A DNA stretch of 64,000 bases from Bacteriovoracaceae bacterium (GTDB lineage Bacteria; Bdellovibrionota; Bacteriovoracia; Bacteriovoracales; Bacteriovoracaceae). Both the position numbers and the translations under genes were made by a program. Where the stretch lies: the NCBI GenBank assembly GCA_018649885.1, contig JABIHA010000035.1, positions 1 through 64,000 on the forward strand, given 5' to 3'. The notes under the pieces were generated by a model. It was not told the origin of the DNA. It ran no database searches and saw nothing but the letters and a program-made list of their open reading frames with translations. Shown here one piece after another: positions 7,604 through 30,712 of this stretch. Numbering within the stretch: the stretch's first letter is position 1; the number at the start of each line of letters is the position of its first letter.

Positions 7604-8095
7604 ATGACTAAGTTTCTAGTTTTGATTGCTTTATTTATTCAATACTCACTACCTGCATTTGCCAATCAAACAACTCAGTTAAGTGATGAAGAAAAACTGC
7701 TCACTATTCGCGAAATTAAGGCCGAGTACAGTGAGCTCGACAAAGATCAAAGAGCTGAGTTTGCAAAATCCATTTTTGTAGATTTTCTTTTCCAACAAGA
7801 AGATGGATATATCTATAAAAGGGATATCAAATTCATTGAAGATTCTCTTGAAAGAGGTGCTGTAACGGACCAAACATTTGATAAATCTTGGGATCAATTG
7901 GATCGAAAAGAGAAAAAATTTATCAGATTATTAGGAAAAGGTAGAGTTTTAAGTCGAGCAAATATTCGAGACAATAGTGGTGAAATTATTTCCGGAACAA
8001 TTATTGCCATTATGGCAACACTTGTAATTATCAGTGCCAAACACACAAATTTAAATGGTATAGGTTTTGATTTCTCAGGAACAAATACATTTTAG
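7604..8095 (+). CDS. secreted/membrane hypothetical protein
   Basis: GGAGG RBS at 7594-7598, signal peptide ending LPAFA, C-terminal hydrophobic helix. Confidence 0.75.
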   Translation: MTKFLVLIALFIQYSLPAFANQTTQLSDEEKLLTIREIKAEYSELDKDQRAEFAKSIFVDFLFQQEDGYIYKRDIKFIEDSLERGAVTDQTFDKSWDQLDRKEKKFIRLLGKGRVLSRANIRDNSGEIISGTIIAIMATLVIISAKHTNLNGIGFDFSGTNTF

Positions 8096-8109
8096 AAGAT
8101 ATAATTAAA

Positions 8110-8135
8110 ACTGCTCACAAACTCTTGTGAGCAGT
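8110..8135. terminator. hairpin, probable intrinsic terminator between convergent genes
   Basis: ACTGCTCACAA-ACTC-TTGTGAGCAGT, perfect 11-bp stem. Confidence 0.7.
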
Positions 8136-8163
8136 CCCTGCAAAAAAATTGGTACCAGTTTGA

Positions 8164-8748
8164 CTAGGGGCCAGCTCGGTCTATACTCAGTGGGATATCT
8201 CTACTGATTGGTTCTTGGAAAATTATATTATATTTATCTCTAAAGAGCTCAACTTCGGCTTCAAACTCAGAAAACTCAAAATACTTTTGACCAAAATAGG
8301 CAACCCTCAAGCCCTGTCCCTTGTAGTTACATGTAAAACTTAAGCTTTGAGAGCACTCATTAACACATTTGATAGCATCTAATTGATCTCGTCGATCCAT
8401 TTCTTTTTGATAAATCCTTTCCGCTTTTTTCAATTTTCTTGAAGAACTCTATGTAAGTAATAAATTAGCAAGCTCCTCTCCAAAATGCTTGGCTATATAA
8501 TCAAATTTATACATTGAGTACATTTCTTTAATATCTAACTTGATAACTTTTTGATGTGCTATCTGTCCTTGTACAAAAAATTCCCAGGCAGCACTACAGT
8601 GAAGCAAATTATTTTGGTAACTCTGTTCCACCAATGCCAATACCTCTGCTTCGATTAACTCTGGACAAGCAGATATTGCAAGTGAAGAAAACCATGACAA
8701 GTAAATAGCGAATAGACTTTTAGTAAACCACACTACTTTAATCGGCAA
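8164..8748 (-). pseudogene. secreted hypothetical gene interrupted by an in-frame TAG
   Basis: ORFs 8449-8748 and 8164-8433 share a frame, joined by ...ANLLLT*SSSRKLKKAER. Confidence 0.6.
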
Positions 8749-8789
8749 ATGAGCAAAAAAGTAAACCTATTTAGGCTGATACGGAAATA

Positions 8790-8856
8790 TTCTTAGTAAA
8801 ATCAAGCATGGATTTTTGCGTATTCGATCGTAAAAGATGACATGGTACCAGTTTTT
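8790..8856 (-). repeat. dispersed repeat family copy (homologous to 1812-1875)
   Basis: TAGTAAAATCAAGCATGGATTTTTGCGTATTCGATCGTAAAAGATGACATGGTACCAGTTTT aligns with TAGTGAAATTAAGTGAGGATTTTTATGCATTTGATCGTAAAAAGTGACGTACCAGTTTT. Confidence 0.75.
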
Positions 8857-8999
8857 ACTGCCAATTATGGATGGCTATATAATTTTTGTTTTCAAGTGAT
8901 AACTATCTGAGTTTATATGACACCTCTTCAATTTTGGAGTGGAAATATTCCTGAGTTATAATTCACACCTTAGCTTTCTTTAACCACGGGATGTAGGAA

Positions 9000-10934
9000 A
9001 TGAAGTTCAAGCAGCAAATCATCAAGTTTTGCCTTGTGGGCATATTGTTAATAATCTCTGTTGTGTATTTCAATGGGTCTCTTAGAGAAGATTTGGCCTC
9101 TTCAGAAAGTTTGACATCTCTTTCGGGATCAATTTCTGGATCAGTAAGTGAGCAGGGTGCTAGCTTGTCGACAAAACCCTTTGAAGTTAATGGCTCACCT
9201 GAAACAGGTCGATTAAAACTTAACCTCAACGGTGATGGTAGAGGATTAACTGAGGTCGTCATACCGCGAGTTATAAATAGCTTAATTTCACCACAAGAAC
9301 TTAGCCCTGGGGCACTGTTGGCCTCTGGAACCCTAGATGAAATTTTAAACCCAGAAGATGAAGTTGATGAAGATGATAAGCCTTTACTTGATTGGTTTAT
9401 TAATCGCATGGCCAACTGTCATCAAGATAAACCCTGGCATCTGTACTTAACGAGATTGGATTTAGATTCATTCTACATGGGTAATGAAGACATCCAAATG
9501 GATTTCACTGAAAACGAAGACAAAGATGTAATTAAGTTCAATGCCAATGTCCAAAATTTTAAAATAGGTGCAGCTGTAAAATTCGTCTGGGGAGAAGACA
9601 CGAGTGGTGTTATGGATACCTTACAGTGTCATGGTGAAGATTGGGAAATCAGCTTAGATGTTACTTTGCAAGGTGCTGAGTTAAGTATGAATGTCAATTT
9701 AGAGTTAGATCAAGAAAGCAACCGATTAAAAGTAAAAAATATTCAGCAATTTAGTATTGGTATGAGTGAGCTTATCATTAATGATGTTCAAGAAAACTTG
9801 GGAATCTGGGACGAATTTAAAGTAAGAACTGCTGTGAAAAGTGTTTGTGGTGTGAAATTTCTAACTAGTATTACCAATGTTGAAACAAGCACCTTCCTTG
9901 AATGTATAGAAGGTTTAGCTTTTACTGATGACGACAAAAATGGATTAATGACCCAAATTCAAGAAGGCATCAATCAATCTCTTGGTGATGCATCTGCTAT
10001 AACGGGTACAGGCACTAATGGATTGAATTATGACATAGATTTAGCTGCATTCGAGTTAGATGAAAGCAATGATCGTCTCAAAACTGACTGGAACCTTGGA
10101 TTAAGTTCAAGCAATAGTAATAGTTGCGCAGACGGCTTGAGTGAGGTGAATTTAAATAGTTATTCTATGGGTAGTACAAGTAGTGATCTATCTATTGCCG
10201 TTCCTTACTCTACTTTTAATCTTGTCGCCTACTTGGTGGCCCAGGATGGAAATTTCTGTAAGAGATTCAACTATGATGTATCAGGCGAAACGCTTCAATT
10301 TCAAATTCAACCACAAGGTAAAATTCAGTCCTATAGTGAGGGAGGATATCTTCACCTTGAAATACCTATATCAATGGAAGGTAGTGCTAGATCAATAACG
10401 GCTAGCTACACTGGAACTCTTCATTTGCGCTCCCATATAGGGTTAAATTGCAACTCAGGGTTGAGCCTAGAGCTTGAAGATATTGAACTTGATAATCTTG
10501 ATGGATCAATCACTGTTGCTGGAGTCGCAGTCAGTTCCACTGGACTTAATTCCGCCGCAAATAATGCAATCGATGACATTCTAGACGATTTAAATAGCAC
10601 TATAACAATTTCAGGGAAAGTGATAAACGGTGGTGAATTATTTGGAATAGAAATTAATGAAACAGTACAAAGTACTTCGGCACTTACCGTTGGCCTTAAC
10701 TTTATCAATAACCCAAATTCATGTGAATCTGAGGAATCATCAACAACAAGTGGTATAATTGCCACTCCAATGAATGATGATATCTCTGATATTTTAGAAG
10801 ACCACCCATTACAAGAAGCCGAGACAAATGGCTCACTTGTAAATCAACATAACCAGATTGATGAAGACTCAGCTGTTGGTGGTATCGCAATCGGTAATGA
10901 AAATGACCTTATTCTTGATCGGGTAGACCCTTAG
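9000..10934 (+). CDS. large acidic membrane-anchored/exported protein, possible BPI/LBP-like (TULIP) fold
   Basis: 644 aa, N-terminal TM/signal, long amphipathic beta strands, paired Cys; fold is inference. Confidence 0.7.
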   Translation: MKFKQQIIKFCLVGILLIISVVYFNGSLREDLASSESLTSLSGSISGSVSEQGASLSTKPFEVNGSPETGRLKLNLNGDGRGLTEVVIPRVINSLISPQELSPGALLASGTLDEILNPEDEVDEDDKPLLDWFINRMANCHQDKPWHLYLTRLDLDSFYMGNEDIQMDFTENEDKDVIKFNANVQNFKIGAAVKFVWGEDTSGVMDTLQCHGEDWEISLDVTLQGAELSMNVNLELDQESNRLKVKNIQQFSIGMSELIINDVQENLGIWDEFKVRTAVKSVCGVKFLTSITNVETSTFLECIEGLAFTDDDKNGLMTQIQEGINQSLGDASAITGTGTNGLNYDIDLAAFELDESNDRLKTDWNLGLSSSNSNSCADGLSEVNLNSYSMGSTSSDLSIAVPYSTFNLVAYLVAQDGNFCKRFNYDVSGETLQFQIQPQGKIQSYSEGGYLHLEIPISMEGSARSITASYTGTLHLRSHIGLNCNSGLSLELEDIELDNLDGSITVAGVAVSSTGLNSAANNAIDDILDDLNSTITISGKVINGGELFGIEINETVQSTSALTVGLNFINNPNSCESEESSTTSGIIATPMNDDISDILEDHPLQEAETNGSLVNQHNQIDEDSAVGGIAIGNENDLILDRVDP

Positions 10935-11003
10935 CCTCGTTGGTGTGATAGATATAATGACACTAATATAAATTTAATTTGAGTAGGGTATCAGTTTTCA
11001 GTT

Positions 11004-11669
11004 TTAGCACCATGATGCGTATTCTTTGGGTTTTTCGTTTAAGAGCTCTTCTATGTTGGCACGGATTAGTCTGTAGCCCACATTGCCAAAAAGAGTTTGC
11101 CTTCCACCGTTGAGAACGTAGCTTGGGCTGCCTTTCAGTTTGTATTTTTCTGAGAGTTTTCGGTCTAGGACTATTTGGGCCATGGCCTCACCTGAGTTGA
11201 GAAGAGCTTGAATACTTTTTTCTTTTATCCCGTGAGCTTTCGTGTGCTCAAAGAGCACTCCTAGGTTGGATATGTCTCTCAGCTCTCCAAAGTAGGCCTT
11301 TCTGATTTCACTGCAAAAAGAGGGGACAATATTTTCTACTTCACCTCTTTCAATAAGGATTTGGAGCGCCTTAATAAAGAGGTGGCAGTTGGTTGAAGAT
11401 GTAGGCATGTTTTTGAGGAAAAAATCTTTGTGCACGCTCATGTGTTCGAAGTCAGCAGCGACTTCTCTTACGTGAGCATTAAATTTTTGGGGACTTCCCT
11501 CGAAAGAGTTTTTGATTTTGTCTTCGACGTTGCCAAAAACAGAGAGGAAATGGCGATGGATTGCAACCCTATCGCCATACTCTTGTTTGACTTCAAAAAC
11601 GCGAGCTTCATCCACGTAGGCCCAAATACAAAATACATCTGTGAAATACTCTATATTAATAGGCAACAT
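11004..11669 (-). CDS. DsbA/FrnE-like thioredoxin-fold protein (DSBA family)
   Basis: IEYFTDVFCIWAY (single Cys) and LKGSPSYVLNG cis-Pro loop. Confidence 0.85.
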   Translation of the reverse strand: MLPINIEYFTDVFCIWAYVDEARVFEVKQEYGDRVAIHRHFLSVFGNVEDKIKNSFEGSPQKFNAHVREVAADFEHMSVHKDFFLKNMPTSSTNCHLFIKALQILIERGEVENIVPSFCSEIRKAYFGELRDISNLGVLFEHTKAHGIKEKSIQALLNSGEAMAQIVLDRKLSEKYKLKGSPSYVLNGGRQTLFGNVGYRLIRANIEELLNEKPKEYASWC

Positions 11670-11672
11670 GTC

Positions 11673-12275
11673 TTACTCGCAGCTTCTCATTAATGCCATT
11701 GCATTAAAATAGGTTAGCATCTTTTCTATATCTTCATCACTAAGAGCAGCTGCAAACCTATTCATGATGGGAGCCACTCTTGTTTTTGTTTTGAATGCGG
11801 CCATAGTCTTTTTTAGGTAGCTTAGCTTTTGACCATAAAGTTTAGGTGCAAAGTGATGGAAGGTTCCATGGCAGTGCATACAACTATTTTTTTGAACTAA
11901 GGCCTTTCCTTCCCGAAACTCTTTTTTAAAATCAGCTCTTTTATAATCAATTTTGAGATCAAAATCACATGGGTTACTTGAGGCCAAAAATGTTGAAACA
12001 TTTTCGATTTCTTTATCACTAAGTTTACTAGCAATTCCATTCATCATTTTAAGAATGTGATCAGTACGCGAACCTGATTTAAAGGCCTGTAGAGATCTCT
12101 TTATATAGACTGCTTCCTGGCCAAAGAGTACGGGGACATCTCCAAAGTTTACTGATGGATCGTGGCACTTCGAGCAGGTATTCATGAAAATTTCAGCACC
12201 ACTAAGCTCAGCAGCAGTCGCATAGTTTGAGGTGAAGAACATAAAAAGGGGGATCAAAATTTTAATGAGTTTCAC
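11673..12275 (-). CDS. periplasmic diheme cytochrome c (c4-like)
   Basis: signal peptide; CSKCH and CMHCH; P-x-L-x-GQ motifs and distal Met in each half. Confidence 0.9.
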   Translation of the reverse strand: MKLIKILIPLFMFFTSNYATAAELSGAEIFMNTCSKCHDPSVNFGDVPVLFGQEAVYIKRSLQAFKSGSRTDHILKMMNGIASKLSDKEIENVSTFLASSNPCDFDLKIDYKRADFKKEFREGKALVQKNSCMHCHGTFHHFAPKLYGQKLSYLKKTMAAFKTKTRVAPIMNRFAAALSDEDIEKMLTYFNAMALMRSCE

Positions 12276-12457
12276 GGCAGTGTATTCCTTTTTTATAATA
12301 GACCAATTTGCTTTGAATCAAGAGTGTACGTAGCGTGCAGCTAAAGTCATGGAGTCAGGCGGCGTCCTCAAAGTATGATTTTGCTTAGCTTTATGTTGTG
12401 TGGCGCAAAAACAAGTAGTTACAGTAGGTTAAGCTTACATTGAATTGTCCCGATCAT

Positions 12458-12498
12458 TGACTTGAAATCAGTGACAATGTATCACTGACTTTAAGTCA
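12458..12498. promoter_or_regulatory. TetR operator overlapping the sigma70 promoter of the GRE operon
   Basis: TGACTTGAAATCAGTGA-N7-TCACTGACTTTAAGTCA (15/17 inverted); TTGACT-17-TATCAC overlaps it. Confidence 0.75.
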
Positions 12499-12532
12499 TT
12501 AAAGTTGAAGTGCCCACGGAGCTTGAAAAACC

Positions 12533-13123
12533 ATGACCAGACAAGAAAAGAAATTACTGACCAAAGAAAGTATTAAAAAGGCGGCAGTCCACTGTTTTGA
12601 GAAAATGGACGTCGATAAAACTTTGGTGGGACAAATAAGTAAAGAGGCCGGTGTCGCCCACGGCACATTTTATGTTCACTTTAAAGATAAAGGTGAACTT
12701 CTTGATGCTCTTCTCGATGACTTTAACGAAGGGCTATTAAAAAAATGCAGACCCCTATTTGAAGGAGTGAGTTTATCTCCTGAAAGTACATATATTTTAA
12801 TTCCAAAGCTTTGTGATCTGATTCTGACTCACATGGAGCAAAATAAATCTTTTGTCAGCATCTATGTTCTGCGCATGACAAAGGGAGCTTCGGTTAAAGA
12901 ATTGAGAGAGGGGATCAACCCAAAAGTAGTGGGATTTTTTAGTGAAATCATGGGTTCAGTTTTTAAGTTAGAAAAGTTTGAAGGGATAGTGTTAATTCAA
13001 GGGATTTTAGCACTTTGGATGAGAGTTATTCTTCAATACTTTGACGGAGGCCCTCTCAGCAGAGAGAGAACTCTCGAAATACTACAAAAATCAACAATTG
13101 GTGTTTTATCAAATTTTAGCTAG
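12533..13123 (+). CDS. TetR/AcrR family transcriptional regulator
   Basis: QISKEAGVAHGTFYVHFKDKGEL helix-turn-helix. Confidence 0.95.
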   Translation: MTRQEKKLLTKESIKKAAVHCFEKMDVDKTLVGQISKEAGVAHGTFYVHFKDKGELLDALLDDFNEGLLKKCRPLFEGVSLSPESTYILIPKLCDLILTHMEQNKSFVSIYVLRMTKGASVKELREGINPKVVGFFSEIMGSVFKLEKFEGIVLIQGILALWMRVILQYFDGGPLSRERTLEILQKSTIGVLSNFS

Positions 13124-13133
13124 AGGAATGACC

Positions 13134-13928
13134 ATGAAAAATTCTATAGCAGACCTAAAAACGAAAGTTGTCATTATCACTGGAGCTTCTTCTGGCATTG
13201 GTAGAGAGATGGCCTTATCTCTTGGCAAGGCCGGCGGAAGAGTTGTTGCTGTTGCAAGGAGAATTGAGAAGTTAAATGAGCTCAAAGAAATAGCAGGTGA
13301 GACAATGCTGACTATCGCTGCTGATGTCGCAGTAGAGGCAGATTGCCAAAAAGTTATTGAGCAAACAGTTGAAAAATTTGGAAGAATTGATGTGCTGGTA
13401 AATAATGCGGGAATATCAATGAATGCTAAGTTTGAAGAGACAGATATCAGCGTTTTTAAAAACCTTATGGATGTTAATTACTTTGGCTCCCTTTATTTAT
13501 CAAAATTTTCTTACCCTCATTTATTAGAAACAGCTGGAAGTGTCTTTTTTATTTCCAGTGTTGTTGGAAAAAGAGGGTTTCCCACAAGAAGTGGATATTC
13601 AGCAGCTAAATTTGCAGTTCAGGGATTATTTGAGTCCCTCAGGGCCGAGTGGGTTCCACAGGGGATTCACGTTGGAATAATCTCTCCCGGTTTTACTGAT
13701 ACCTCAATTAGGTCCAAGGCCTTTAATGCTGATGGATCACTCAGAGGGGCCGATGGAAAAACTGCTGGGAAAATCATGTCTGCCGGTGATGCCGCTGGGT
13801 ATATTTTAGATGCAGTCTCGGCCAAAAAACGTGAAGTGATACTAACAGGTGCAGGAAAATTTATTGTGGGTGTGAACAAATTTTTTCCAAAACTAACAGA
13901 TACAATCGTAAATAAAACTCTAGGATAA
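13134..13928 (+). CDS. classical short-chain dehydrogenase/reductase (DHRS7-like)
   Basis: TGASSGIG, VARR (NADP-type), NNAG, YSAAK; GAGGA RBS before ATG 13134. Confidence 0.95.
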   Translation: MKNSIADLKTKVVIITGASSGIGREMALSLGKAGGRVVAVARRIEKLNELKEIAGETMLTIAADVAVEADCQKVIEQTVEKFGRIDVLVNNAGISMNAKFEETDISVFKNLMDVNYFGSLYLSKFSYPHLLETAGSVFFISSVVGKRGFPTRSGYSAAKFAVQGLFESLRAEWVPQGIHVGIISPGFTDTSIRSKAFNADGSLRGADGKTAGKIMSAGDAAGYILDAVSAKKREVILTGAGKFIVGVNKFFPKLTDTIVNKTLG

Positions 13929-13932
13929 AAAG

Positions 13933-14910
13933 ATGAATATTTTTATAACAGGTGCAACCGGATTTGTCGGAAGAAGTATTATGAAAGGGCTCAAAGCTTG
14001 CGGGCACAATGTTGCTATTCTTGCACTGCCTAATGAAAAAGTCACTGGTCTAAATGATATTGAAATCCATAGAGGTGATATCACTAAAAAAGAAACTCTA
14101 ATCGGAGTTATGACAGGGCAAGATGTTGTGATTCATCTTGCGGGTGCAGTTGGCTATGGTCAGGAAATGGATCTTTGCCGAAAAATCAATGTGGACGGCA
14201 CTGTTAATATGGCCTTAGAAGCACATAATTGTGGAGTCAAAAGATTTATTCACATGAGTAGTGTTGCTGTTTATGGCAGGCAAAACAAAGGTGCTATTAG
14301 TGAGAATACTCCTTTTCTCAAAATTGGAGATCCTTATGGTGATACCAAAATTGATGCTGAAGTTGAGCTCAATTCTATTGAAAAGAGAACTAAAATGAAT
14401 GTCACATATGTAAGACCAACAGTTATTTTTGGTCCAGGCGATGACAAATTTTTACCCAAGCTTTTAGAGAATATACAAAGTGGCAATGCAAAAATCATTG
14501 GGGATGGGAAAAATCGAGTAGATCTAATTCATATTGATGATGTGGTTAGATTCTTTGTTGCCATTCTAGAAAACCCAAAAAGTTACGGCCAGGCCTACAA
14601 TTTAACTAATTCGGAAAATGGCAACTGGGATCAGTTCTTAGAAACTATGGGGCAGGAGTTGAAATTAAACTCCAATGTGGGACATATTCCGTATCCTGTT
14701 GCCTACGCTGTTGCAGGAGTAATGGAGCTTGTTTCTCATTTTACAAAAAAAGCACCTAAACTTACTCGTTACGCTGTTCGAGTTGTAGGAAAGCACTATA
14801 ACTTCCGCACCGATAAGGCCCAGAAAGATCTTGGCTTTATGGCAAAAATTGGCATTAAAGAGGGAATTGTTCCACTAATTGCAAAGTATCAAAGAGGTAT
14901 CCAATGTTAA
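13933..14910 (+). CDS. extended SDR, NAD-dependent epimerase/dehydratase (3-beta-HSD/OleD-like)
   Basis: TGATGFVG, HLAG, HMSSVAVYG, YGDTK, RPTVIFGPGD; LTRYAV...KAQKDLG tail. Confidence 0.9.
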   Translation: MNIFITGATGFVGRSIMKGLKACGHNVAILALPNEKVTGLNDIEIHRGDITKKETLIGVMTGQDVVIHLAGAVGYGQEMDLCRKINVDGTVNMALEAHNCGVKRFIHMSSVAVYGRQNKGAISENTPFLKIGDPYGDTKIDAEVELNSIEKRTKMNVTYVRPTVIFGPGDDKFLPKLLENIQSGNAKIIGDGKNRVDLIHIDDVVRFFVAILENPKSYGQAYNLTNSENGNWDQFLETMGQELKLNSNVGHIPYPVAYAVAGVMELVSHFTKKAPKLTRYAVRVVGKHYNFRTDKAQKDLGFMAKIGIKEGIVPLIAKYQRGIQC

Positions 14911-17468
14911 TGAAAGTAAGACCAATCCTTGGGGTTAAATCTAGTCGGCTTAAAAGTCTTAGACGTCAACTACTTGATGCTCCTTATGAGTTGTGCACTC
15001 AAAAATCATACTGGATTACAGATTATTTCAAAAGCAATACACATCTATTTCAAAAGAAATCTGTAATAAGGGATATTGTCGAAAAAGTTCATTACAGGTC
15101 TTATAAGAAATCATTATTCTCTCTGGCAAAAGGGCAGGAGTTAGATCAAAAAAAGATTGCTATCAATCACAAACTTGGACAGTTTTATGCCAAAAACTAC
15201 CATGAACATTTGACTAGCTCGCTGCAAGTTACATACGCCAAGGCCTTGGCCCATACATTAGAAAATATGGAGCTTAAAGTTTATCCAGATGAGTTAATTG
15301 TGGGGAATTGTTCTTCTAAAAGAATTGGGGCACCTGTTCACACTGATTTGTCGGGAGTTCTTTTAGTGCCCGAGCTAGCAGACTTAACAACAAGGAAAGT
15401 AAACCCTATTGAGATGTCTAGTCAGCAAAAAGAACAATTAGAAGATGAAATTTTTCCATTTTGGTTTAATAAGTCAGTTCTATTTCATACTTCACAAACT
15501 TTTGATGATCCAGCACTGCTAAACGATATGCTTAGTGGTGGATATTTTATACTTACCCAAATTGCTGGGATTTCTCACTTAACACCCAACTACCAAAAAG
15601 TTATTGAGGTAGGTTTTTTAGGGATTAAACAGGAAATTAAAACAGAAATCGAAAAGCTGAAAAAGCTTGAACAAAGTGATGAGAACGTTACTAAATTACA
15701 ATTTTTAAAGTCGTTAGTGATTTCAACTGACGCTGCAATTGATTACGGTGTGAGGTGGAGCAAGAAATTGTCAGAGCTTGCAATGGTAGAAAAAGATGAA
15801 AAAAGAAAAAAAGAATTGTGCGAATTGGCCGAAATGTTTAAAACCATTCCTGCTAAACCTGCAGAGTCTTTTCATCAGGCCTTGCAATCCATGATGATTA
15901 CTCATGTGATAGTACATCAAGAAAGTTTTCAACATGGAGTATCTTTTGGTCGTTTGGATCAATTCCTTTATTCTTACTATAAAAAAGATATTGAGAGTGG
16001 AAAAATAGATGATGAAAAAGTTGTAGAGCTTATTGGTTGTTTTCTAGGCAAAGCAGCTGAGCTTTTACCTCTCTTTTTTGAAAGGGCGACAGAATATTTT
16101 AGTGGGCTTTCATCAGCTTCTGGCATAACTCTTGGGGGCAGCACTCCTGATAGTGATGATGCCGTCAATGAGCTGTCTTATCTGATTTTAAGTGCCTATG
16201 ACCAAATGAGATTAAGACAGCCCAATATTCATGTCAGAGTCAATGAGAACACATCTCGTGATTTTTTGAATTACTCATTTGAAATTTTAAAAAAAGGAGG
16301 AGGAATACCGGCCTTTTTTAATGATCCCAAAATTATCACATCCCTGATAAATCAAAATTACTCTAGTGAGGACGCTCATGCTTACTCAGTTGTTGGTTGT
16401 AGTGAATGGGGAGTTCCCAGTAAAAGTTTTCCGGCAGCAGGAGCTGGTTTCATTAATTTGGCCTTTGCCTTAAATATGACCCTTGGAACCTATCGTGGAG
16501 ATTTTCTACAAGATCGCCGGGGAAATAAGATTTCTGATAGCACAAAATCCATTGAGGATGTGCTCCAGCTTTTCGAACTAAACCTCAAAGAGCTCTTAGA
16601 TGTGGCGGTCACTGGAAATAACTGTATTGAAAGTGTACATGCAAATTATCGTCCCACTCCTTTTTTGTCAGCGATTGTTGAAGGTCCTATTCAAAAGGCA
16701 AAAGATCTCAATGCTGGTGGCAGTATCTATAATAGTTCAGGTTTTCAAGCGGTGGGACTGGCCGATGTGGCCAATTCGCTGATGGCAATACAGCAAGTTG
16801 TATTTACCCAAAAGAAATTAACACTTTCAGAGTTTGTAGCGGTTATTGATTCCAATTTCAAAGACTATGACTCTTTGAGATCTTATATATTAAATAGAGT
16901 TCCCAAATACGGACAAGACAATCTAGAAGTAGATCAATTTTCACAAAAAGTGAGTGAGATTTATAGCAGACTTGTAAGTGAGCTGACTCATCAAAGGGGA
17001 GGGCGCTACCTTCCTGGGTTTTGGACAATGACAACACATCAAGGTTTTGGGAAGAGAACTGCTGCCCTACCATCAGGCCGCTTGCATGGTGAGTGTTTAT
17101 CCAATGGGATTTCACCTACTCTTGGAAGTGAGAAATATGGGCCTACTGCTGCGCTTAATTCGGCCAGTAATGTGGACTCTGATTTGGCCGGAAATGGCAT
17201 GATACTCAATCAAAAAGTAGACAAGCAAAATATTTCAGGTGAGCGCGGTAATGTGATTTTAGAAGGACTTTTAAGAGGTCATTTTAATGGTGGAGGGATA
17301 CAAGTACAATTTAATATCCTTGACCAGGATACGCTACTTAAGGCCCGCAAAAATCCAGATCTCTACAAAGACTTAGTTGTGAGAATTTCAGGTTACTCTG
17401 CTTATTTCAATGATCTAACAGAAGATATGAAAGATGAGCTGATTTTGAGGAATACTCATCATGTCTAG
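14904..17468 (+). CDS. glycyl radical enzyme of unknown substrate (PFL2/eliminase-like superfamily)
   Basis: VVRISGYSAYF glycyl motif (Gly830), single-Cys loop VVGCSEWG (Cys499), SFGRLDQFLY, RLRQPN. Confidence 0.95.
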   Translation: MLMKVRPILGVKSSRLKSLRRQLLDAPYELCTQKSYWITDYFKSNTHLFQKKSVIRDIVEKVHYRSYKKSLFSLAKGQELDQKKIAINHKLGQFYAKNYHEHLTSSLQVTYAKALAHTLENMELKVYPDELIVGNCSSKRIGAPVHTDLSGVLLVPELADLTTRKVNPIEMSSQQKEQLEDEIFPFWFNKSVLFHTSQTFDDPALLNDMLSGGYFILTQIAGISHLTPNYQKVIEVGFLGIKQEIKTEIEKLKKLEQSDENVTKLQFLKSLVISTDAAIDYGVRWSKKLSELAMVEKDEKRKKELCELAEMFKTIPAKPAESFHQALQSMMITHVIVHQESFQHGVSFGRLDQFLYSYYKKDIESGKIDDEKVVELIGCFLGKAAELLPLFFERATEYFSGLSSASGITLGGSTPDSDDAVNELSYLILSAYDQMRLRQPNIHVRVNENTSRDFLNYSFEILKKGGGIPAFFNDPKIITSLINQNYSSEDAHAYSVVGCSEWGVPSKSFPAAGAGFINLAFALNMTLGTYRGDFLQDRRGNKISDSTKSIEDVLQLFELNLKELLDVAVTGNNCIESVHANYRPTPFLSAIVEGPIQKAKDLNAGGSIYNSSGFQAVGLADVANSLMAIQQVVFTQKKLTLSEFVAVIDSNFKDYDSLRSYILNRVPKYGQDNLEVDQFSQKVSEIYSRLVSELTHQRGGRYLPGFWTMTTHQGFGKRTAALPSGRLHGECLSNGISPTLGSEKYGPTAALNSASNVDSDLAGNGMILNQKVDKQNISGERGNVILEGLLRGHFNGGGIQVQFNILDQDTLLKARKNPDLYKDLVVRISGYSAYFNDLTEDMKDELILRNTHHV

Positions 17469-18354
17469 AACTCTCGCGAACATTTTTGATATTCAAAGGT
17501 TTTCTATTCACGATGGGCAGGGAATACGAACAACTGTATTTTTTAAAGGTTGTAGTTTGAATTGTCAGTGGTGCCAAAATCCAGAGTCTAAGGCGCCAAA
17601 AAGTCAGCTCTACTTTGACCAAGCTAAGTGCCAGGATTGTAAAAGTTGTATTGGTTCTTGCCCTAGTGGTGCTATTTCAAATGGTGCCGGAAAAAGTGAT
17701 GTTGATTTTAATATGTGTAATGATTGCGGACAATGCGTAGAAAGTTGTCCCAATCTAGCTTTTGAGCTCTTGGGAAAAAGCTATACTGAAGATGAGCTAC
17801 TTGATAGTTGCCTCAAAGACCAAAGCTTTTATGAAAGCTCTGGTGGAGGAGTTACTCTCTCTGGTGGTGAAGCGGTTCTCCAGTCTGAATTTCTTCAAGG
17901 ATTTCTTCCTAAGTTAAAAGAAGCAGGAGTTCACATTTTACTTGAAACTGCTGGGAATTATCCCTTTCGCCTGCTTTCTCCATTACTGCCTTATATCTCA
18001 CATATATACATTGATATGAAATTTTATAGTGAAGACAAGCATTTAAAATACACTGGAAGTAGCAATCAGCTGATACTTGAAAATTTGGGAAAGCTAGTTG
18101 AGATGGACTTTCCTTTGACAGTGAGAGTACCGGGAATAAACGGGATTAATACTGACATAGATGAAAACGAAAAAATAGCAAGTCATTTAAACTCTCTGGG
18201 AATATCAGAGGTTGAACTTTTAAAATACAATTCACTTTGGGAATCAAAAATATCACGGATTGATACGGCTCAAAAACAATTAAATATTTCTAACAATGAG
18301 GACTATCTCCATGAACTTAAAAAGTGCTACAGCAAATATGACATTCGGGCCTAG
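17461..18354 (+). CDS. glycyl radical activating enzyme (radical SAM) with 2x[4Fe-4S] ferredoxin insert
   Basis: HDGQGIRTTVFFKGCSLNCQWCQNPE; CQDCKSCIGSCP and CNDCGQCVESCP; GVTLSGGE. Confidence 0.95.
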   Translation: MSRTLANIFDIQRFSIHDGQGIRTTVFFKGCSLNCQWCQNPESKAPKSQLYFDQAKCQDCKSCIGSCPSGAISNGAGKSDVDFNMCNDCGQCVESCPNLAFELLGKSYTEDELLDSCLKDQSFYESSGGGVTLSGGEAVLQSEFLQGFLPKLKEAGVHILLETAGNYPFRLLSPLLPYISHIYIDMKFYSEDKHLKYTGSSNQLILENLGKLVEMDFPLTVRVPGINGINTDIDENEKIASHLNSLGISEVELLKYNSLWESKISRIDTAQKQLNISNNEDYLHELKKCYSKYDIRA

Positions 18355-19618
18355 TCGTGCCGATTCATCTCTAGTAGAAAGTGAGAAGAGCTCATTTTTT
18401 TGGAGTAAACTATCTAGCTATCAAAAAAAGCTACTACTCTTTTTAAGTGTGGCCACTTTTTTTGAAGGTTATGATCTACTGGCCTTAACCCAAATTTTGC
18501 CTGAAATTAGGACTCATTTTGGTCTCACTCCTGCTTATGGTGGGATTATGGTGGGAGTTATCAATGTGGGAACCATATTATCTTATTTATTAGTAAGAAA
18601 GGCCGATATTTGGGGAAGAAAAAAAGTGATGATGCTTACTATTTTGGGGTACACACTTTTCTCATTTCTATCCGGAATCTCAACTACAGTTTATATGTTT
18701 GCAGGTTTTCAGTTGATGGCGCGAATTTTTCTCATTGCAGAGTGGGCCATTAGTAATATCTATGCCGCTGAAGAATTTCCTGCCGAAATGAGAGGGACGA
18801 TTTTGGGTATTATTCAAGGGTTTTCTTGTCTTGGTGCCATTGCTTGTGCAGCAGTAGTGCCACTTCTACTTGAAACGGGATACGGTTGGAGAACGATTTA
18901 TTTTGTGGGCACCCTGCCACTAATCATCTTGGCCTTTTCTAGAAGAAATCTAAAAGAGACAGCAAGGTTTACTAAGGCCCGCGCGGAAAGGGCCACTCTT
19001 TCGACCTCAATGACTGCAATCTTTAAAACAGATTATGTTAAAAGATTGGTCCTTGTCTCATCTATTTGGGCCCTAACCTATACCTGTACTCAAAATGCCA
19101 TAACCTTTTGGAAGGAATTTGCAACTGCCGAACGAGGTTTAACTAACGGTCAAATAGGTATATCTGTGGGAGTTGCTGCCATACTATCTATGCCTCTCGT
19201 GTTCTTTGTTGGTAAAGTCATTGATTCCCTTGGGAGAAAGAAAGGGGCACTACTTATATATGGAGTGGGACTTACTGGCATCTATGGCGCCTATACGCTC
19301 AATTCTTGGTGGGCCTTAACTGCGTCTCTTGTTTTCGCTATTTTTGGTGCTAGTTCTGTGATTCCTGTACTCAACGCATTTACTACTGAGCTCTTTCCTA
19401 CTCATTTGAGAGCAGATGCTTTTGCCTGGACTAATAATATATTCGGACGAGTTGGTTATGTCCTGGCACCTGTATTTATCGGAAGTTTTGCAGGCACTCT
19501 TGGTTGGGGCTTCACTAGTAAGTTGACCATTATTTTTCCTGTGATCGCTCTCATCATTATTTTAAAATATCTGCCAGAAACAAGCGGGGTAGAACTCGAA
19601 AAGAGTTCTTCAATTTAG
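18338..19618 (+). CDS. MFS transporter (SV2/aromatic acid:H+ symporter-like)
   Basis: about 12 TM; FFEGYD, ADIWGRK, EEFPAEMRG, IDSLGRK, ELFPTHLR, LPET motifs; start codon uncertain (18296/18311/18338). Confidence 0.9.
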   Translation: MTFGPSRADSSLVESEKSSFFWSKLSSYQKKLLLFLSVATFFEGYDLLALTQILPEIRTHFGLTPAYGGIMVGVINVGTILSYLLVRKADIWGRKKVMMLTILGYTLFSFLSGISTTVYMFAGFQLMARIFLIAEWAISNIYAAEEFPAEMRGTILGIIQGFSCLGAIACAAVVPLLLETGYGWRTIYFVGTLPLIILAFSRRNLKETARFTKARAERATLSTSMTAIFKTDYVKRLVLVSSIWALTYTCTQNAITFWKEFATAERGLTNGQIGISVGVAAILSMPLVFFVGKVIDSLGRKKGALLIYGVGLTGIYGAYTLNSWWALTASLVFAIFGASSVIPVLNAFTTELFPTHLRADAFAWTNNIFGRVGYVLAPVFIGSFAGTLGWGFTSKLTIIFPVIALIIILKYLPETSGVELEKSSSI

Positions 19619-20170
19619 ATTTTGAAAATACCTTTGTCTGTTTTTGTAGAGGTACTGAAAAATCCCTTTGCCGAAAACAAAATAAGACACAACTAGTGGC
19701 GCCAGAAGCCATCTTAAGGGTGAGGGAGAATATTTCATTATCAGTGAGCACATGACGATCTCACTTATCTGGCCTATGGGATAGAGGATGATAAAAAGGT
19801 TGTAGCGGAAAAACCCTAGAAGTCTCCCCCCAAAGAAGTAATACCCTGATCTCAGAGAATCGGCCAGTGACCAGACAAAAATTAAGGCCACTACAAATCT
19901 GGGATCACCTTGATTTTGGAGATAGGCATAGAAGATCACCCAGGCGTATAGGTTTCTCGCTAGAACTTGAATAATAGTAAAGCTGAGAGAGGATTTGACC
20001 CATTTTTTGTAGCAATGAAAGATCTCAAGCAGTGAAACCAGGTGGGTTATTCTGACAAGAGTCAGAGGTGTAAAAAACTCACTTTCAAATCCTAAAAGAG
20101 CATATATTGAAGAGCCGAGAGTCAGAAGCCATAGCACCATCATGGAAAAATTGTAGGTTTTCAAATACAT
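19610..20170 (-). CDS. PTPLA / HACD (PHS1)-like 3-hydroxyacyl-CoA dehydratase
   Basis: YLKTYN, LLEIFH...VKS...TIIQVLAR, WSLADSLR.GYY, RYNLFIILYPIGQISE, YLYKNR. Confidence 0.8.
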   Translation of the reverse strand: MYLKTYNFSMMVLWLLTLGSSIYALLGFESEFFTPLTLVRITHLVSLLEIFHCYKKWVKSSLSFTIIQVLARNLYAWVIFYAYLQNQGDPRFVVALIFVWSLADSLRSGYYFFGGRLLGFFRYNLFIILYPIGQISEIVMCSLIMKYSPSPLRWLLAPLVVSYFVFGKGIFQYLYKNRQRYFQNLN

Positions 20171-20178
20171 AGGTGGTT

Positions 20179-20207
20179 ATTATATAGGGCAATTCCCAGA
20201 GTTTCAA
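20179..20207 (-). promoter_or_regulatory. sigma70 promoter giving a near-leaderless HACD-like transcript
   Basis: TTGAAA-17-TATAAT, ATG 8 nt downstream, no SD. Confidence 0.65.
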
Positions 20208-20295
20208 TATTTGGCATTTTTACAGTGCTGATGAATAATAGATTCATTTTGAGTCTTTTATTCTATGATTCGCGCTCACTAAATTGAGAAACTAA

Positions 20296-21213
20296 ATGAG
20301 CACTGTTAAGGCTATGATTTTTATCTGTCTGATGGCCCACGGCTTGGGGTTAAAGGCGTCTAGTTCCTGCTTTAGCGCTAGAAGGCTTCTCGAAATAGTA
20401 AATCAGCGGTTTTCAGATGCAATGAGCACTGGGGATATGGTGAAGCTCAGATCTCTTGATGGAAGTACTTACACTACCCACTTTCTAGGAGAGGTTTTCG
20501 ACACAAAAACAAAGAAATTGTATTCTCTATTTTTTGATCCAGAAAATCTTGAAGTTCACTACCTCTTATCAGATCGGATTTCGTACCTAAAGGGTGGCTC
20601 CCTTAGAACCATTATAGATAATTCCCCACTTCCCCCGCTTGTAAAACAAGTAGGAGATTCATGTGCGGTCTATGCCATGCGTGGTTGTTTATCACAACTG
20701 TCTTTAATACATGGAAACCTGATTCTTCCATCGGGAAAAAGCCTATTTTCAGACCTTGATGGAGTGACTCAACAGTTATTTAAAAGATTGATCCACGAAA
20801 ACTCAGCAAGTGGTGCTGAGCAGATTCAAAAAATGCGAAGTCTTTTGAATGAATTTGGCATTGGTCATCGTATTGATTTTTCAAATTCTGGAGTGACCCC
20901 CAGTGCTGTACTGGCCCACCTCGAAAAAGGAAAACCTACAATTGTGATGTTTCCCCAAGCAACTGTTAAAGGCACTATCTCTGTCGCCTCTGATTCCGCC
21001 GTTACTATCACGCATGGGCTTCGTTCTGGTATTTCCTCTTCAAATGAGGCCATTTACCATGCCGTTGTGATGACAAGTACATTTACCGATAATAAAGGCC
21101 TTCGCTACTATGTATTTTATGATTCAGGAACCGGGGGAATTCACCTCTGGAGTGAAGCCGAAATTCTAAATTCTTCCGGCTCTAAAATTTTATACTTACT
21201 CGTTGATTTATAG
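20296..21213 (+). CDS. secreted papain-fold cysteine peptidase (C39-like)
   Basis: KQVGDSCAVYA (Q...C), YHAVVM (H), YVFYDSG (D); N-terminal signal peptide. Confidence 0.65.
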   Translation: MSTVKAMIFICLMAHGLGLKASSSCFSARRLLEIVNQRFSDAMSTGDMVKLRSLDGSTYTTHFLGEVFDTKTKKLYSLFFDPENLEVHYLLSDRISYLKGGSLRTIIDNSPLPPLVKQVGDSCAVYAMRGCLSQLSLIHGNLILPSGKSLFSDLDGVTQQLFKRLIHENSASGAEQIQKMRSLLNEFGIGHRIDFSNSGVTPSAVLAHLEKGKPTIVMFPQATVKGTISVASDSAVTITHGLRSGISSSNEAIYHAVVMTSTFTDNKGLRYYVFYDSGTGGIHLWSEAEILNSSGSKILYLLVDL

Positions 21214-22053
21214 AAGAAAAATATAATCAGCGATGGGCCCAAATTCTTTAGATGGGTTGGTCAGTTCACCAATTTCTTTTTTCCCCATTCCGATTGTATC
21301 AATGAGTTTGATCGTTATTACAGGTAGTGATTTATCACGCTTTAGTTGGGCCACAGTTCCTGAAAAATAATCAGTGTGAAAAGATCCAGCTACGACAAAT
21401 TGTAGATCAAAAGTTGAATTCGTGATTAAGGCCTGTGACATCACGCTGTCAGTAAAACACTGAGCAAGGAAGTAGCCATCTAGTTTTTCTCTTGGAACAT
21501 GAGAGCCCATGACTGTGTTAAATCGCTTGCGGTAGTTTTTATCGCCAAGCTGAAAATCAGCGGGAACATACTTTGGGTCTACTGCTTTGATTCCACCAGT
21601 GATGAGTTTTTTCTTTACAGATCTTTCAATATTTAAACCCAGGAGCTGACCACCGAGATCTTTTACAGCTTTCAAAATGGGTGCATAAACAAGATTGTTT
21701 TTTGAAACCGAGAGGCCTTGGAAAAATTTGGCAAGATCAATTTTATCATCAGAGAACATCTCAAAATTGTGATCAATTTCTGATTGCGCTGTATAATTTA
21801 AAAACTCCCAACCAACAGTGAAGCTATTTTCAGAGTATGTGGCCTTGACCACGTCTTTTATAATTTGGGCCTGGGCACCTTGGATTAGATGATTGTAATG
21901 ATATTCGCCTAGAATCACTCTGGCATTTGCTGGGATTTCTTTTAAAAATTGCTCATTAGTTACGAATTTTGAGCTTCCAGATTTATAGATGGAGGTAGCT
22001 GAAAATGTATTGAGGGATAAAATTGTCAGGGCCAAAGCAAGCATTGCTTTCAT
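21208..22053 (-). CDS. ChaN/PhuW-like (EreA/ChaN fold) exported protein
   Basis: VILGEYHYNHLIQGAQ, VGWEF, AQCFTDSVM, VAGSFH; GGAG RBS before ATG 22053. Confidence 0.85.
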   Translation of the reverse strand: MKAMLALALTILSLNTFSATSIYKSGSSKFVTNEQFLKEIPANARVILGEYHYNHLIQGAQAQIIKDVVKATYSENSFTVGWEFLNYTAQSEIDHNFEMFSDDKIDLAKFFQGLSVSKNNLVYAPILKAVKDLGGQLLGLNIERSVKKKLITGGIKAVDPKYVPADFQLGDKNYRKRFNTVMGSHVPREKLDGYFLAQCFTDSVMSQALITNSTFDLQFVVAGSFHTDYFSGTVAQLKRDKSLPVITIKLIDTIGMGKKEIGELTNPSKEFGPIADYIFLL

Positions 22054-22261
22054 TGATATTCTCCAGGATTTAATTGTCAAGACACGTATGTGGCCAATGG
22101 TATTCAAAGTGAGCTGTGTTGACAATGTTAATCGTAATTTCAGCCAGTTATGGCCGTCTGAAGTTTTGACATCCCTGTATTTGCTTCTATCCAGCTATCG
22201 CTGAGTGGCCTTCTCTTGATAATGTGGAGCGAACTGCTATAAAGGCTCCCAGGAAGGATTT

Positions 22262-23041
22262 ATGAATACTAGAGATATGCTCATTCCCTATTTTTCTTTT
22301 CCCATATTAGACGGACTTGGCCGTAGACATACGGGCCCAGAGATAATGGATGTAGCGACACTTCCTTTTTCCACTACCCAAAAAGTTTATAAGAATTTGA
22401 GCATGGTTAATTCGATCCTAGGTGTTGATGGTCCTAGCCTCCTTTTTGTTAAAAAATTTATTGAAGATCATCCAAACCAGAAGAGTCTTCGAATTCTTGA
22501 TATTGGATGTGGTCAAGGTGATAAGCTTAGAAAGATTCAGGCCCTCTTATTAAAAAAAGGCGTAGAAGCACAGCTCGTTGGAGTGGATCTTAACGAGGAT
22601 GTTGTAAAATCGGCCACAAAAAGTTCAGGGCCAAATTGTGATATACAGTTTCTTGCTAAAAATGTTTATGATTTTGATGAGACAGTCAAATTTGATATTG
22701 TCTTGTGTACTAATGTTCTACATCACTTAAGTGATGAGGATATTTTAAAACTAATCAAGTGGTCCGAACACAGAAGCGAGGCATTCTTTTTTATAGATCT
22801 CTACAGGTCTGCTCTGACATTCATAGGCTGGTGGACCCTGTGTCACACACTTTTATCTTTTTTTGGAGCGATCATCAGGACCGATGGATTTCTTTCCATT
22901 AAAAAATCATTTAGAGAAGCTGACTTTGTAAACTATGTTCACAAACTTAGTTTTAATACAGGTAAAACAATAATTAAAAAGCAAGGCCTCTTCTTTTTAT
23001 CCATGACTCATTATTCACATTGCACTGAAGTTAATTTGTAA
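22262..23041 (+). CDS. class I SAM-dependent methyltransferase
   Basis: ILDIGCGQGD, VGVDLN, FDIVLCTNVLHHL, EIMD N-terminal motif. Confidence 0.9.
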   Translation: MNTRDMLIPYFSFPILDGLGRRHTGPEIMDVATLPFSTTQKVYKNLSMVNSILGVDGPSLLFVKKFIEDHPNQKSLRILDIGCGQGDKLRKIQALLLKKGVEAQLVGVDLNEDVVKSATKSSGPNCDIQFLAKNVYDFDETVKFDIVLCTNVLHHLSDEDILKLIKWSEHRSEAFFFIDLYRSALTFIGWWTLCHTLLSFFGAIIRTDGFLSIKKSFREADFVNYVHKLSFNTGKTIIKKQGLFFLSMTHYSHCTEVNL

Positions 23042-24219
23042 TCCAGCTTAAGTGTCGCATGAGGATTGGGATGTATTTCCCAACGAATCGGCTCTTCACT
23101 TTGAATTAACTTAATTTTAGAAATTGAAAGTCCATATCTCCTGACAAATTGTCCAAGGGCCAGGTTTCCAACATGGGGAAATGAGAGCTTGTAGGGATCT
23201 CCTGTATAAGGATTGTCATAAGAGAGAATATGCCTTGATGCTCCATCACTCGTCATTGAAGAAAAATCCATAAAATATTGAATTTCTCCATCACCCAGGT
23301 CCTCGTATGAACCTGCTATATTTTGATAGGGCCCAACTCCAGGATTAGAAACGCCTATAATTCTCCCCGAGTAGTCATTTCGATATGAGTTGTTTGATAG
23401 TGAAACATTGATCTCTCCTGATTTATCAATAACGGAAATATTCCACTTCCCACTATACGACCAGGAGAAGCTTCCTGCAGGAGCTGGCAAATTTGCTTTA
23501 TGGGAGTAGGAATAATTGAGTCTCCCAAAGAGATATTTTACTGAGTCAGAACAAGATTCAGCGTAAGCAGATTTAATGGGGTTTAATTTATGGAGTAGCT
23601 TTTGGAATAGACCTGCACTAGGTGCACTTAATTCTATAACCTCATCAGCATAATCCGATAGATCACTTAGCTCTTGGTCAATATTTTGCTGCCACTCAGT
23701 TTGCTTGTCCGGGAGTGAGCCGTGCTCGGTTTCTTTGTCGTAGTGGCAACTTGCTGTCACACAGGGATTAGATTCACCGTAGTATTGATCCCACATTCCG
23801 TCCCACAAATCTCTGAAAGCATTTTCAATACCGGTGTTATTACAGCTAAGCAGATTGGCCTCTAATTCTGAGGATTCTTTGAGTGCCTTTTTCAATTTTC
23901 GAAGCCAAAGCTCATTCAGCTTCAGGTGATAGGATTCATGGGTTTTAAGTTGGTCATCGAGTGGTATTTTTCTCCAGGACAAATCAGGATCAATTCCACT
24001 TTTTAATCCAATCTTCAATTTTTTAGTGCTGGGGTTATGGCACCATGATGTAATATCCCAAGTACCCCATGTAAGTGCATCGTGTGGGGAGTTGGCGTCT
24101 GCTCCACCTCGGTAGAATCCATCTTCAACCACCATTGTAGGAGTCCATACAATATCTTCAGCGAAGCTGGAAATCGGTAGAGTGAACAAAATTGTGAATG
24201 CGAGTAGTCTAAGATTCAT
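23011..24219 (-). CDS. secreted hypothetical protein
   Basis: signal peptide ending SSFA; several Cys; internal IKSAYAE motif. Confidence 0.75.
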   Translation of the reverse strand: MNLRLLAFTILFTLPISSFAEDIVWTPTMVVEDGFYRGGADANSPHDALTWGTWDITSWCHNPSTKKLKIGLKSGIDPDLSWRKIPLDDQLKTHESYHLKLNELWLRKLKKALKESSELEANLLSCNNTGIENAFRDLWDGMWDQYYGESNPCVTASCHYDKETEHGSLPDKQTEWQQNIDQELSDLSDYADEVIELSAPSAGLFQKLLHKLNPIKSAYAESCSDSVKYLFGRLNYSYSHKANLPAPAGSFSWSYSGKWNISVIDKSGEINVSLSNNSYRNDYSGRIIGVSNPGVGPYQNIAGSYEDLGDGEIQYFMDFSSMTSDGASRHILSYDNPYTGDPYKLSFPHVGNLALGQFVRRYGLSISKIKLIQSEEPIRWEIHPNPHATLKLDYKLTSVQCE

Positions 24220-30701: not shown

Positions 30702-30712
30702 AGGGGGGGCTT

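Follow-up and report, generated by a model that had tools for sequence, protein, structure and literature searches.

A glycyl radical enzyme operon

The DNA analysed here is a stretch of 64,000 nt from a Bacteriovoracaceae bacterium (assembly GCA_018649885.1, contig JABIHA010000035.1, positions 1 to 64,000); the whole of it is called the window, and all positions are numbered within it. Its plus strand carries a cassette of six genes, including one that encodes a glycyl radical enzyme (GRE). On the evidence of its sequence this GRE is a member of no characterized family, and its chemistry is probably that of an eliminase or isomerase.

The cassette begins with tetR (12533..13123), encoding a TetR-family regulator (PF00440) of a host-type subfamily, and 5′ to this gene lies an inverted repeat of 17-7-17 nt (12458..12498, 88% complementary) that is likely to be the TetR operator. 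Two short-chain dehydrogenase/reductases (SDRs) follow. The first is a classical SDR of the PRK06181 family (13134..13928; NF004825, 285 bits against a cut-off of 215) with the YxxxK motif, and the second is an extended SDR (eSDR; 13933..14910) of 3beta-HSD/epimerase fold, in which YxxxK and the Ser are kept. The GRE (14904..17468; 854 aa) matches PF02901 and PF01228 and contains C499, E501, H225, H344 and G830; the pLDDT of its predicted model is 91. It is followed by the GRE-activating radical S-adenosylmethionine (SAM) enzyme (the activase; 17461..18354), which scores 283 bits with TIGR02494 (cut-off 174) and has a CxxxCxxC motif and two ferredoxin motifs, and by a transporter of the major facilitator superfamily (MFS; PF07690) that starts at 18296, or at an ATG at 18338, and ends at 19618. 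Gaps of 10 and 4 nt separate the first three genes, whereas the eSDR/GRE, GRE/activase and activase/MFS junctions overlap. This bears out the tightly packed operon described in an earlier account made from the letters of the window (the sequence-only reading).

No match to the microcompartment (BMC), acetate kinase or aldehyde dehydrogenase families was found in the 50 open reading frames (ORFs) scanned out of the 53 in the window of at least 150 aa, the other three being antisense overlaps. Such genes had been reported missing in the sequence-only reading, and this holds for the window; there are 13 aldehyde dehydrogenase matches elsewhere in the host genome. A search against Rfam matched nothing, and promoter and terminator scans gave results at chance level only, with no promoter site at the 12458..12498 repeat.

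Relationship to known glycyl radical enzymes

The GRE has the hallmarks of the PFL-like superfamily, i.e. a Gly loop (RISG830Y), a Cys loop (G498-C499-S500-E501) and a radical SAM activase above the TIGR02494 cut-off. As originally noted, there is a single Cys in the GCSE sequence with no second Cys adjacent. Pyruvate formate-lyase (PFL) has adjacent Cys-Cys, and the GRE scores 120 bits with TIGR01255 against a cut-off of 994, so this identity can be discarded. In a search for homologues 8000 candidates were scored, of which 396 proteins had E<=1e-100; members of the clade come from Myxococcota, Desulfobacterota, Binatota and Dehalococcoidia. The 120 homologues listed are 45-52% identical to the GRE, except for the GRE itself and one protein at 75%, and five motif signatures are kept in 115-120 of them. 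All 120 have a CxE Cys loop (CVE in 88, CAE in 26, CSE in three and CTE in three). The eliminase-type site recognized in the sequence-only reading is thus common to them, and the Ser of GCSE, to which that reading had drawn attention, is not a signature of the clade.

None of the 13 NCBIfam models that the GRE matches gives a score above its cut-off, consistent with its original placement outside the characterized families. They include PFL2-3 (623 bits, cut-off 678), HypD (NF043068; 492 against 1100), a C-S lyase model (NF048011; 466 against 1000), HpfG (NF048009; 436 against 1000) and CutC (TIGR04394; 430 against 1050). HpfG (DHPS dehydratase) was set aside by its score and not by comparison of substrate-binding residues. 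A literature search, whose coverage left out most subscription papers and supplements, found no paper describing the clade.

We constructed a tree with FastTree from 104 sequences, omitting partial GREs and most metagenome loci; PFL2 itself is not among them, and long branches of the references were flagged. The window GRE lies in a clade of 62 sequences with support of 100, whose members carry an insert that is discussed below. The sister group comprises four sequences without the insert, and next to these is a group containing a PFL2-like sequence. Glycerol dehydratase (GD), propanediol dehydratase (PD), YbiW, PflD, HypD, CutC and an IslA-like control all fall outside the GRE clade. Comparison of the GRE model with known structures gave Z scores of 49.4 for PFL2, 48.4 for GD and 48.2 for PD, falling to 40.9-42.4 for the C-S lyases, 36-39 for BSS/MASS and 34 for PFL. 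Foldseek placed GD first and PFL2 second.

PFL2 (PflD) of A. fulgidus (2F3O), a protein of unknown function, is the top match both in sequence (E 1e-141) and in structure (Z 49.4, rmsd 1.6 over 768, 34% identity). It has the CxE, the beta1 His and M709 in common with the GRE, but has E, E, Q, N, D and Y where the GRE has Q219, Q343, H344, A405, G513 and W707, and it lacks the insert of ~53 aa. With six pocket positions different and the insert present, the GRE is not a member of the PFL2 group; this comparison with PFL2 was made by alignment, not in the tree. In the accessible text of PMC13450708 and PMC5992423 PFL2 is debated as a dehydratase or an alkylsuccinate synthase, and since it is the closest structure one might suppose that the GRE works as a hydroalkylase that adds to fumarate, the role that has been put forward for PFL2. 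This is very unlikely, however. BSS/MASS lie ~10 Z units lower, the CxE and the His/His set are kept in the GRE, and within 12200-20300 there is no Met-started ORF of 36-131 aa with at least four Cys that could correspond to the small Fe-S subunit of BSS/MASS and HPAD.

GREs of the neighbouring PFL2-like group were also observed, together with an activase, on plasmids of Acinetobacter towneri and Moraxella osloensis (L145:7857-11232 and L146:7857-11232 in our numbering of loci). They lie amid Tn3/IS elements, with genes for a beta-propeller, a carboxymuconolactone decarboxylase-like protein and molybdopterin, and were unexpected in aerobes.

GD (DhaB1, 1R8W) and PD (5I2G, 9RCO) are 34% identical to the GRE with Z scores of 47-48, and like it they have a ferredoxin-containing activase. 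Their partners are an iron-containing alcohol dehydrogenase or a microcompartment, whereas those of the GRE are SDRs. E. coli YbiW/PflD cleaves a ring C-O bond of anhydro-sugar phosphates; this C-O cleavage by a CxE enzyme via a ketyl radical provides a precedent for ether scission. YbiW keeps both His residues and has Gly at the position of GD D447, as does the GRE. Yet it is 30% identical, it lies outside the clade in the tree and the GRE has no PTS or aldolase neighbours, and we therefore discount an isomerase of the YbiW/PflD type.

The active site

Residues were mapped by alignment with C. butyricum DhaB1 (GD), and invariance in the clade was taken from 73 aligned sequences. GD residues H164, H281, C433, E435 and G763 are kept as H225, H344, C499, E501 and G830 of the GRE. 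By contrast S282, Y339, Y640 and S642 have changed to G345, A405, W707 and M709, and W445/H446/D447 to A511/A512/G513, so that A405, G513 and G345 put small residues where GD has side chains that fill the pocket. Thus the catalytic set of GD and PD (H164/H281/C433/E435) is present but the pocket set (Ser282, Tyr339 or Phe, Asp447 and Tyr640) is not; we assume the roles generally assigned to H281, S282, D447, Y339 and Y640 in the GD active site. H225, H344, C499, E501, A405, G513, G345, W707 and M709 are invariant in 73 out of 73 sequences, and the pocket contains several invariant His, Gln and Ser residues. According to the text available of PMC13450708, CXE is kept by eliminases and isomerases, and His164 of GD protonates the leaving hydroxyl.

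GD and PD have substrates that differ only at C3, and their residues diverge at Y339/F and S642/V, so these two positions are likely to set the C3 substituent. We infer that the site in the GRE is a diol-dehydratase site that has been opened on the C3 side.

The C-S lyases IslA, IseG and HpsG have the CxE eliminase fold in common with the GRE (Z 41-42), and use two Arg and one Gln to bind the sulfonate (PMC13450708, in the part accessible). In the structural register of PMC8473560, as far as its text was available, IslA Gln193 corresponds to CutC Asp216 and HypD His160. On this basis IslA R189, Q193 and R678 become A221, H225 and G705 in the GRE, or T218, G222 and G705 in the sequence register. 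By alignment there is no Arg at the positions of IslA 189 and 678 in either register, while the IslA-like control (L153) keeps both. In the absence of these anchors the GRE does not appear to be a sulfite lyase of the IslA/IseG/HpsG kind. CutC is discounted because its Asp216 (beta1) is replaced by His225, and HypD because Arg156 and Asp278 are replaced by Ala221 and His344, although His160 is kept; both are in addition far below their cut-offs. The lack of a conserved Arg at the sulfonate positions of IslA, with Q219 and Q343 in place of the Glu residues of PFL2, suggests that the substrate is uncharged.

The cap helix lies between beta2 and beta3, and would correspond to about residues 393-399 of the window GRE (PMC13450708, from its accessible text). 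The insert lies near the N-terminus (about residues 46-103), forming two helices in ~53 residues with a mean net charge of +7.5 in 73 sequences. These helices rank first of 18 on what we take to be a valid discriminant for lipid binding. A search of the Atlas with the insert returned just GRE fragments under 0.9 and generic helical matches. Docking of the GRE on an anionic membrane by the insert would be compatible with these properties, but we treat it as a lead only.

Conservation of the SDR partners

Related loci were collected by an alignment scan, used in place of a single-protein scan in which none of 99 pattern matches was confirmed. There are 135 such loci, 125 of which have a GRE of at least 40% identity; 54 have full flanks and these are not dereplicated. 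Among the 35 full-flank loci that are not linked to dsr genes the activase is present in 29, the eSDR in 19, the classical SDR, no more than 3 kb from the GRE, in 13, both SDRs in 12 and the MFS gene in none, with the order of genes shuffled. The SDRs are therefore conserved neighbours, as the sequence-only reading had required.

The association of the eSDR with the GRE is close. In 351 Myxococcota genomes the GRE is found in eight (one being the chosen centre) and the eSDR in six, all of which are among the eight; five of the six eSDR genes lie no more than 2 kb from the GRE, and the other one adjoins the end of a contig. These counts are based on scoring a few top candidates in each genome, and related genomes do not count as independent cases. 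The family formed by the eSDR is small and discrete, with conserved motifs of its own, and its scores run from 337 to 240 bits before a drop to 181. It was found in eight of 36 carrier genomes, chosen mostly because they lack it at the locus. The eSDR is thus a dedicated but non-obligatory partner of the GRE clade.

The top matches of the eSDR are lipid-acting families, and its NCBIfam matches (OleD, HpnA and SdmB) are all far below cut-off; the description of the reductases as steroid-type therefore reflects family labels only. An Atlas search with the eSDR gave only generic 3beta-HSD clusters. Its closest structure is Gox2253 (3WJ7), the top match in sequence and fold at 25% identity, which shares YxxxK and the Ser, as do extended SDRs of the OleD/HpnA type. 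We take Gox2253 to be active as a reductase of medium-chain aldehydes. The classical SDR has ARR after beta2, which we presume to indicate the use of NADP(H).

Transporters, sulfur genes and regulators

The best NCBIfam match of the MFS protein is the aromatic acid:H+ symporter TIGR00895, at 113 bits far below the cut-off of 419. No homologue of it was found in the 135 related loci, and in our analysis it is a local addition and not a conserved part of the cassette. An imported substrate, as envisaged in the sequence-only reading, is not a general feature of the clade. The same count of 0/135 led us to reject the convergent PTPLA gene downstream (see below) as a conserved component. Transporters vary from one locus to another, being TauE (six loci), GltS-like, an amino acid permease, aquaporin Z, an MFS protein or none, and none is common to the whole clade.

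These transporters raise the alternative, broadly in line with the sequence-only reading, that the GRE acts on a polar imported molecule (an amino-diol, hydroxy amino acid or polyol acid) that is epimerized by the two SDRs. An amino acid permease occurs with a beta-keto acid cleavage enzyme at locus L002, and a permease also at L101; GltS-like and MFS genes are in operon position at some loci, and invariant His, Gln and Ser residues are present in the pocket. Against this, no transporter is shared, the acidic residues of PFL2 are replaced by Gln or Gly, and the neighbouring genes include no recurrent kinase, aldolase, iron-containing alcohol dehydrogenase or aldehyde dehydrogenase. We consider this proposal unlikely.

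One subclade of homologues adjoins dsrAB or TauE. Among 40 Dehalococcoidia-type loci, 35 have the GRE back-to-back with dsrA in a dsr cluster, without an adjoining activase or SDR, and in six Desulfobacterota-type loci TauE lies 1-2 genes downstream. The GRE might therefore cleave an organosulfonate or sulfonolipid (e.g. a capnine-type base or cysteinolic acid), binding it in a manner unlike IslA and giving sulfite either in the reaction itself or following deamination. PMC4959651, the available text of which does not contain the word 'glycyl', leaves open where the sulfite of a marine Dehalococcoidia cell comes from, and TauE is present in a sulfonate GRE cluster in the accessible part of PMC11489063. 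In the part seen of PMC10591310 'glycyl' occurs only in a reference. However, the Arg/Gln/Arg positions of IslA are not kept, while the IslA-like control has both Arg. In the tree the dsr-linked sequences are one derived branch nested among Desulfobacterota sequences, and all sulfur-linked loci are in one subclade. Moreover the GRE was not found in seven other dsrA-bearing Chloroflexota among 251 genomes, nor a NIR_SIR-family gene in the host genome of the window. On balance cleavage of a sulfonate seems doubtful.

An activase-like match is present somewhere in all 36 carrier genomes searched. Five Dehalococcoidia genomes (G066, G072, G073, G077 and G078) have 4-7 GRE-family and 2-4 activase matches, which are matches and not copy numbers; this suggests that the Dehalococcoidia GREs share activases.

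The window TetR differs from the TetR families at other GRE loci, and among the 135 only L066 was matched. There are two paralogues in its own genome, at 32% identity. The score of the inverted repeat at 12458-12498 was equalled by one of 150 stretches drawn at random from the genome, and two similar half-sites (TCACTGA-N7-TCACTGA) precede the TetR paralogue on host contig C120; this rarity and the similar half-sites make it the likely, predicted operator. The operator pattern was absent from 188 loci, although it was strict enough to miss the window's own copy. We note that the paralogues, at G000:C120 ~7098-8974 (L186) and G000:C109 ~34069-36021 (L187) of the host genome, each lead a radical SAM gene of ~425 aa that is below all the NCBIfam cut-offs shown, and that a 35% TetR homologue at L066:1335-3325 likewise adjoins a radical SAM gene of that kind.

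The host and the origin of the cassette

Ribosomal protein L2 is 76-78% identical to proteins of named Bacteriovorax and Halobacteriovorax, its closest named matches, which supports a Bacteriovoracaceae-like member of the Bdellovibrionota as the host. The window GRE is the sole PF02901 match in the host genome, which is 92% complete. This genome encodes NarG (1503 bits, cut-off 1084), Oah (for anaerobic ring cleavage) and three HGD-D-family matches; it gave no match to NrdD, NIR_SIR, BMC or acetate kinase. The presence of NarG and Oah makes an anoxic phase plausible in this organism, in keeping with the earlier suggestion of anoxic capacity in a predatory lineage.

The GRE clade was found in none of 400 other genomes of the phylum and in none of 60 relatives, so that the cassette is not typical of this predatory phylum. 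The simplest reading of these comparisons would be that the cassette was gained horizontally and then came under the control of a local regulator. The same absence, with the lack of a class III ribonucleotide reductase match in the host genome, could be taken to indicate a misassembly or a decaying relic without function in the host. Window DNA is found in marine and seawater metagenomes. In contigs of four marine runs from three studies, however, depth is present in all 30 bins of the region 8000-24000 and is alike inside and outside the operon without joints, although no single piece covers the whole operon; no RNA data set was among those listed as containing window DNA. Every cassette gene is intact with its catalytic motifs, there is a full-length GRE homologue at 75% identity, the regulator belongs to a host-type subfamily, and NarG and Oah are encoded in the host genome. 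We regard misassembly or decay as extremely improbable.

Oah and the HGD-D-family genes bear on a further alternative, that the substrates are aryl-glycols, which the GRE would dehydrate, or aryl-glycerol ethers such as lignin-type fragments, which it would cleave, with the SDRs acting on the aryl ketone or aldehyde. Aromatic residues would lie near the enlarged pocket, an activator of the XylR/MobR-type V4R class is divergent at six loci, and the best match of the window MFS is an aromatic acid symporter. But among 40 other GRE carriers, many of them represented by incomplete metagenome-assembled genomes, Oah was found in just four, the V4R regulators are confined to one subclade, and the MFS match is far below cut-off in a protein that is not conserved. 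An aryl substrate is on this evidence improbable.

The cultured Plesiocystis and Enhygromyxa carry the GRE and activase. These are strict aerobes. Neither narG nor NrdD was found in any of five other carrier genomes, i.e. four Nannocystaceae and the genome of L001.

The anaerobic equipment of the host is broad for a Bacteriovoracaceae-like cell. The loci (in genome G000, C3 ~30154-33736, C40 4411-6711, C66 1-8054, C4 38458-42232 and C84 1368-4177) comprise Oah, the three HGD-D genes, narGH with a transporter-like ORF as neighbour, two PhsA/DmsA-like molybdoenzymes and formate dehydrogenase. A different GRE, which groups with CutC, was observed in a genome of the same family (L137; G027:C18:42608-44845).

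Proposed function

The reading that we favour, tentatively and at somewhat less than even confidence, is that the GRE is a 1,2-eliminase of diol-dehydratase type acting on a bulky, uncharged and likely lipid-derived vicinal diol or glycerol ether. As part of this reading, and with the same reserve, 1-O-alkylglycerol and long-chain 1,2-alkanediols may be named as candidate substrates. We favour it because of the pattern of pocket residues, the lack of charged anchors and of a conserved transporter, the cationic insert, the lipid-type relatives of the SDRs and the induction of PFL2 on hexadecane; A. fulgidus PFL2 (PflD) is reported to be up-regulated on this alkane (PMC5992423, citing Khelifi 2014, in the text accessible). 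The sequence-only reading proposed a new GRE chemistry; the evidence points instead to known 1,2-elimination on a new substrate.

By analogy with the chemistry of other GREs, the activase would generate the radical at Gly830 when oxygen is absent, and the Cys499 thiyl radical would then take a hydrogen atom from the carbinol carbon. Glu501 would deprotonate the substrate radical, and His225 would protonate the leaving hydroxyl or alkoxide to generate an aldehyde or ketone. More speculatively, Ala405, Gly513 and Gly345 might leave room for the tail, lined by Trp707 and Met709, with the cationic hairpin docking the enzyme on an anionic membrane. The eSDR could then reduce the carbonyl product, and the classical SDR could supply or epimerize the diol. 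In a nitrate-respiring host the cassette might allow lipids derived from prey or particles to be used in anoxic phases.

Several observations weigh against a lipid diol or ether. Transporters at some loci (MFS, TauE, GltS-like and amino acid permease) suggest a polar imported solute, and lipase-type neighbours, sought in 109 neighbouring ORFs, are present at just three loci and not conserved. The eSDR was not found in 28 of the 36 carrier genomes searched, including all the Dehalococcoidia and the cultured Nannocystaceae. The hydrophobic moment of the insert is ordinary (0.28-0.33, inside the control range of 0.16-0.42), and its rank on the lipid discriminant arises from charge. The cap-helix segment (386-406) is more hydrophobic than those of GD, PD, YbiW and the IslA-like control, but not above CutC or PflD. 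Pocket size and the position of the insert are deduced from alignment, and GRE active sites are described as highly malleable in the accessible text of PMC8473560.

A wider proposal, which we think rather unlikely as a whole, is that the clade consists of membrane-docked GREs that cleave or dehydrate alkyl glycerol ether lipids without oxygen, as an anaerobic counterpart of alkylglycerol monooxygenase. Horizontal transfer would have carried them among predatory bacteria and sediment sulfate/sulfite reducers, and nominal aerobes would use them to digest prey lipids in anoxic micro-niches.

The clade lies near the PFL2-like group, and its fixed and distinctive pocket, its dedicated reductase (which could serve in a coupled assay) and its presence in the cultured Plesiocystis pacifica SIR-1 and Enhygromyxa salina DSM 15201 and SWB005 make it directly testable. 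Neither 'membrane' nor 'lipid' appears in the available text of PMC13450708, its references apart. A lipid or ether substrate, if correct, would make the GRE an enzyme that has been missing from anoxic lipid turnover, and a sulfonate substrate would bear on the open sulfite source of Dehalococcoidia. Whichever the substrate, an enzyme labile to oxygen is present here in predators that are usually regarded as aerobic.

Other features of the window

A PTPLA/HACD-like gene on the minus strand (19610-20170) is convergent with the operon, overlapping the MFS stop by 9 nt, and is absent from all 135 related loci; we take PTPLA/HACD to be the eukaryote-type family of 3-hydroxyacyl-CoA dehydratases. 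Divergent from the operon (11004-12275, minus strand) are genes for a diheme cytochrome c and a DsbA-family protein that are not conserved at related loci. Beyond these, at 9000-10934, is encoded an acidic and probably exported protein of 644 aa without a Pfam or NCBIfam match. An ORF at 30713-31231, directly 5′ of fliM, encodes a fusion of a KfrA_N domain with a FliG middle domain.

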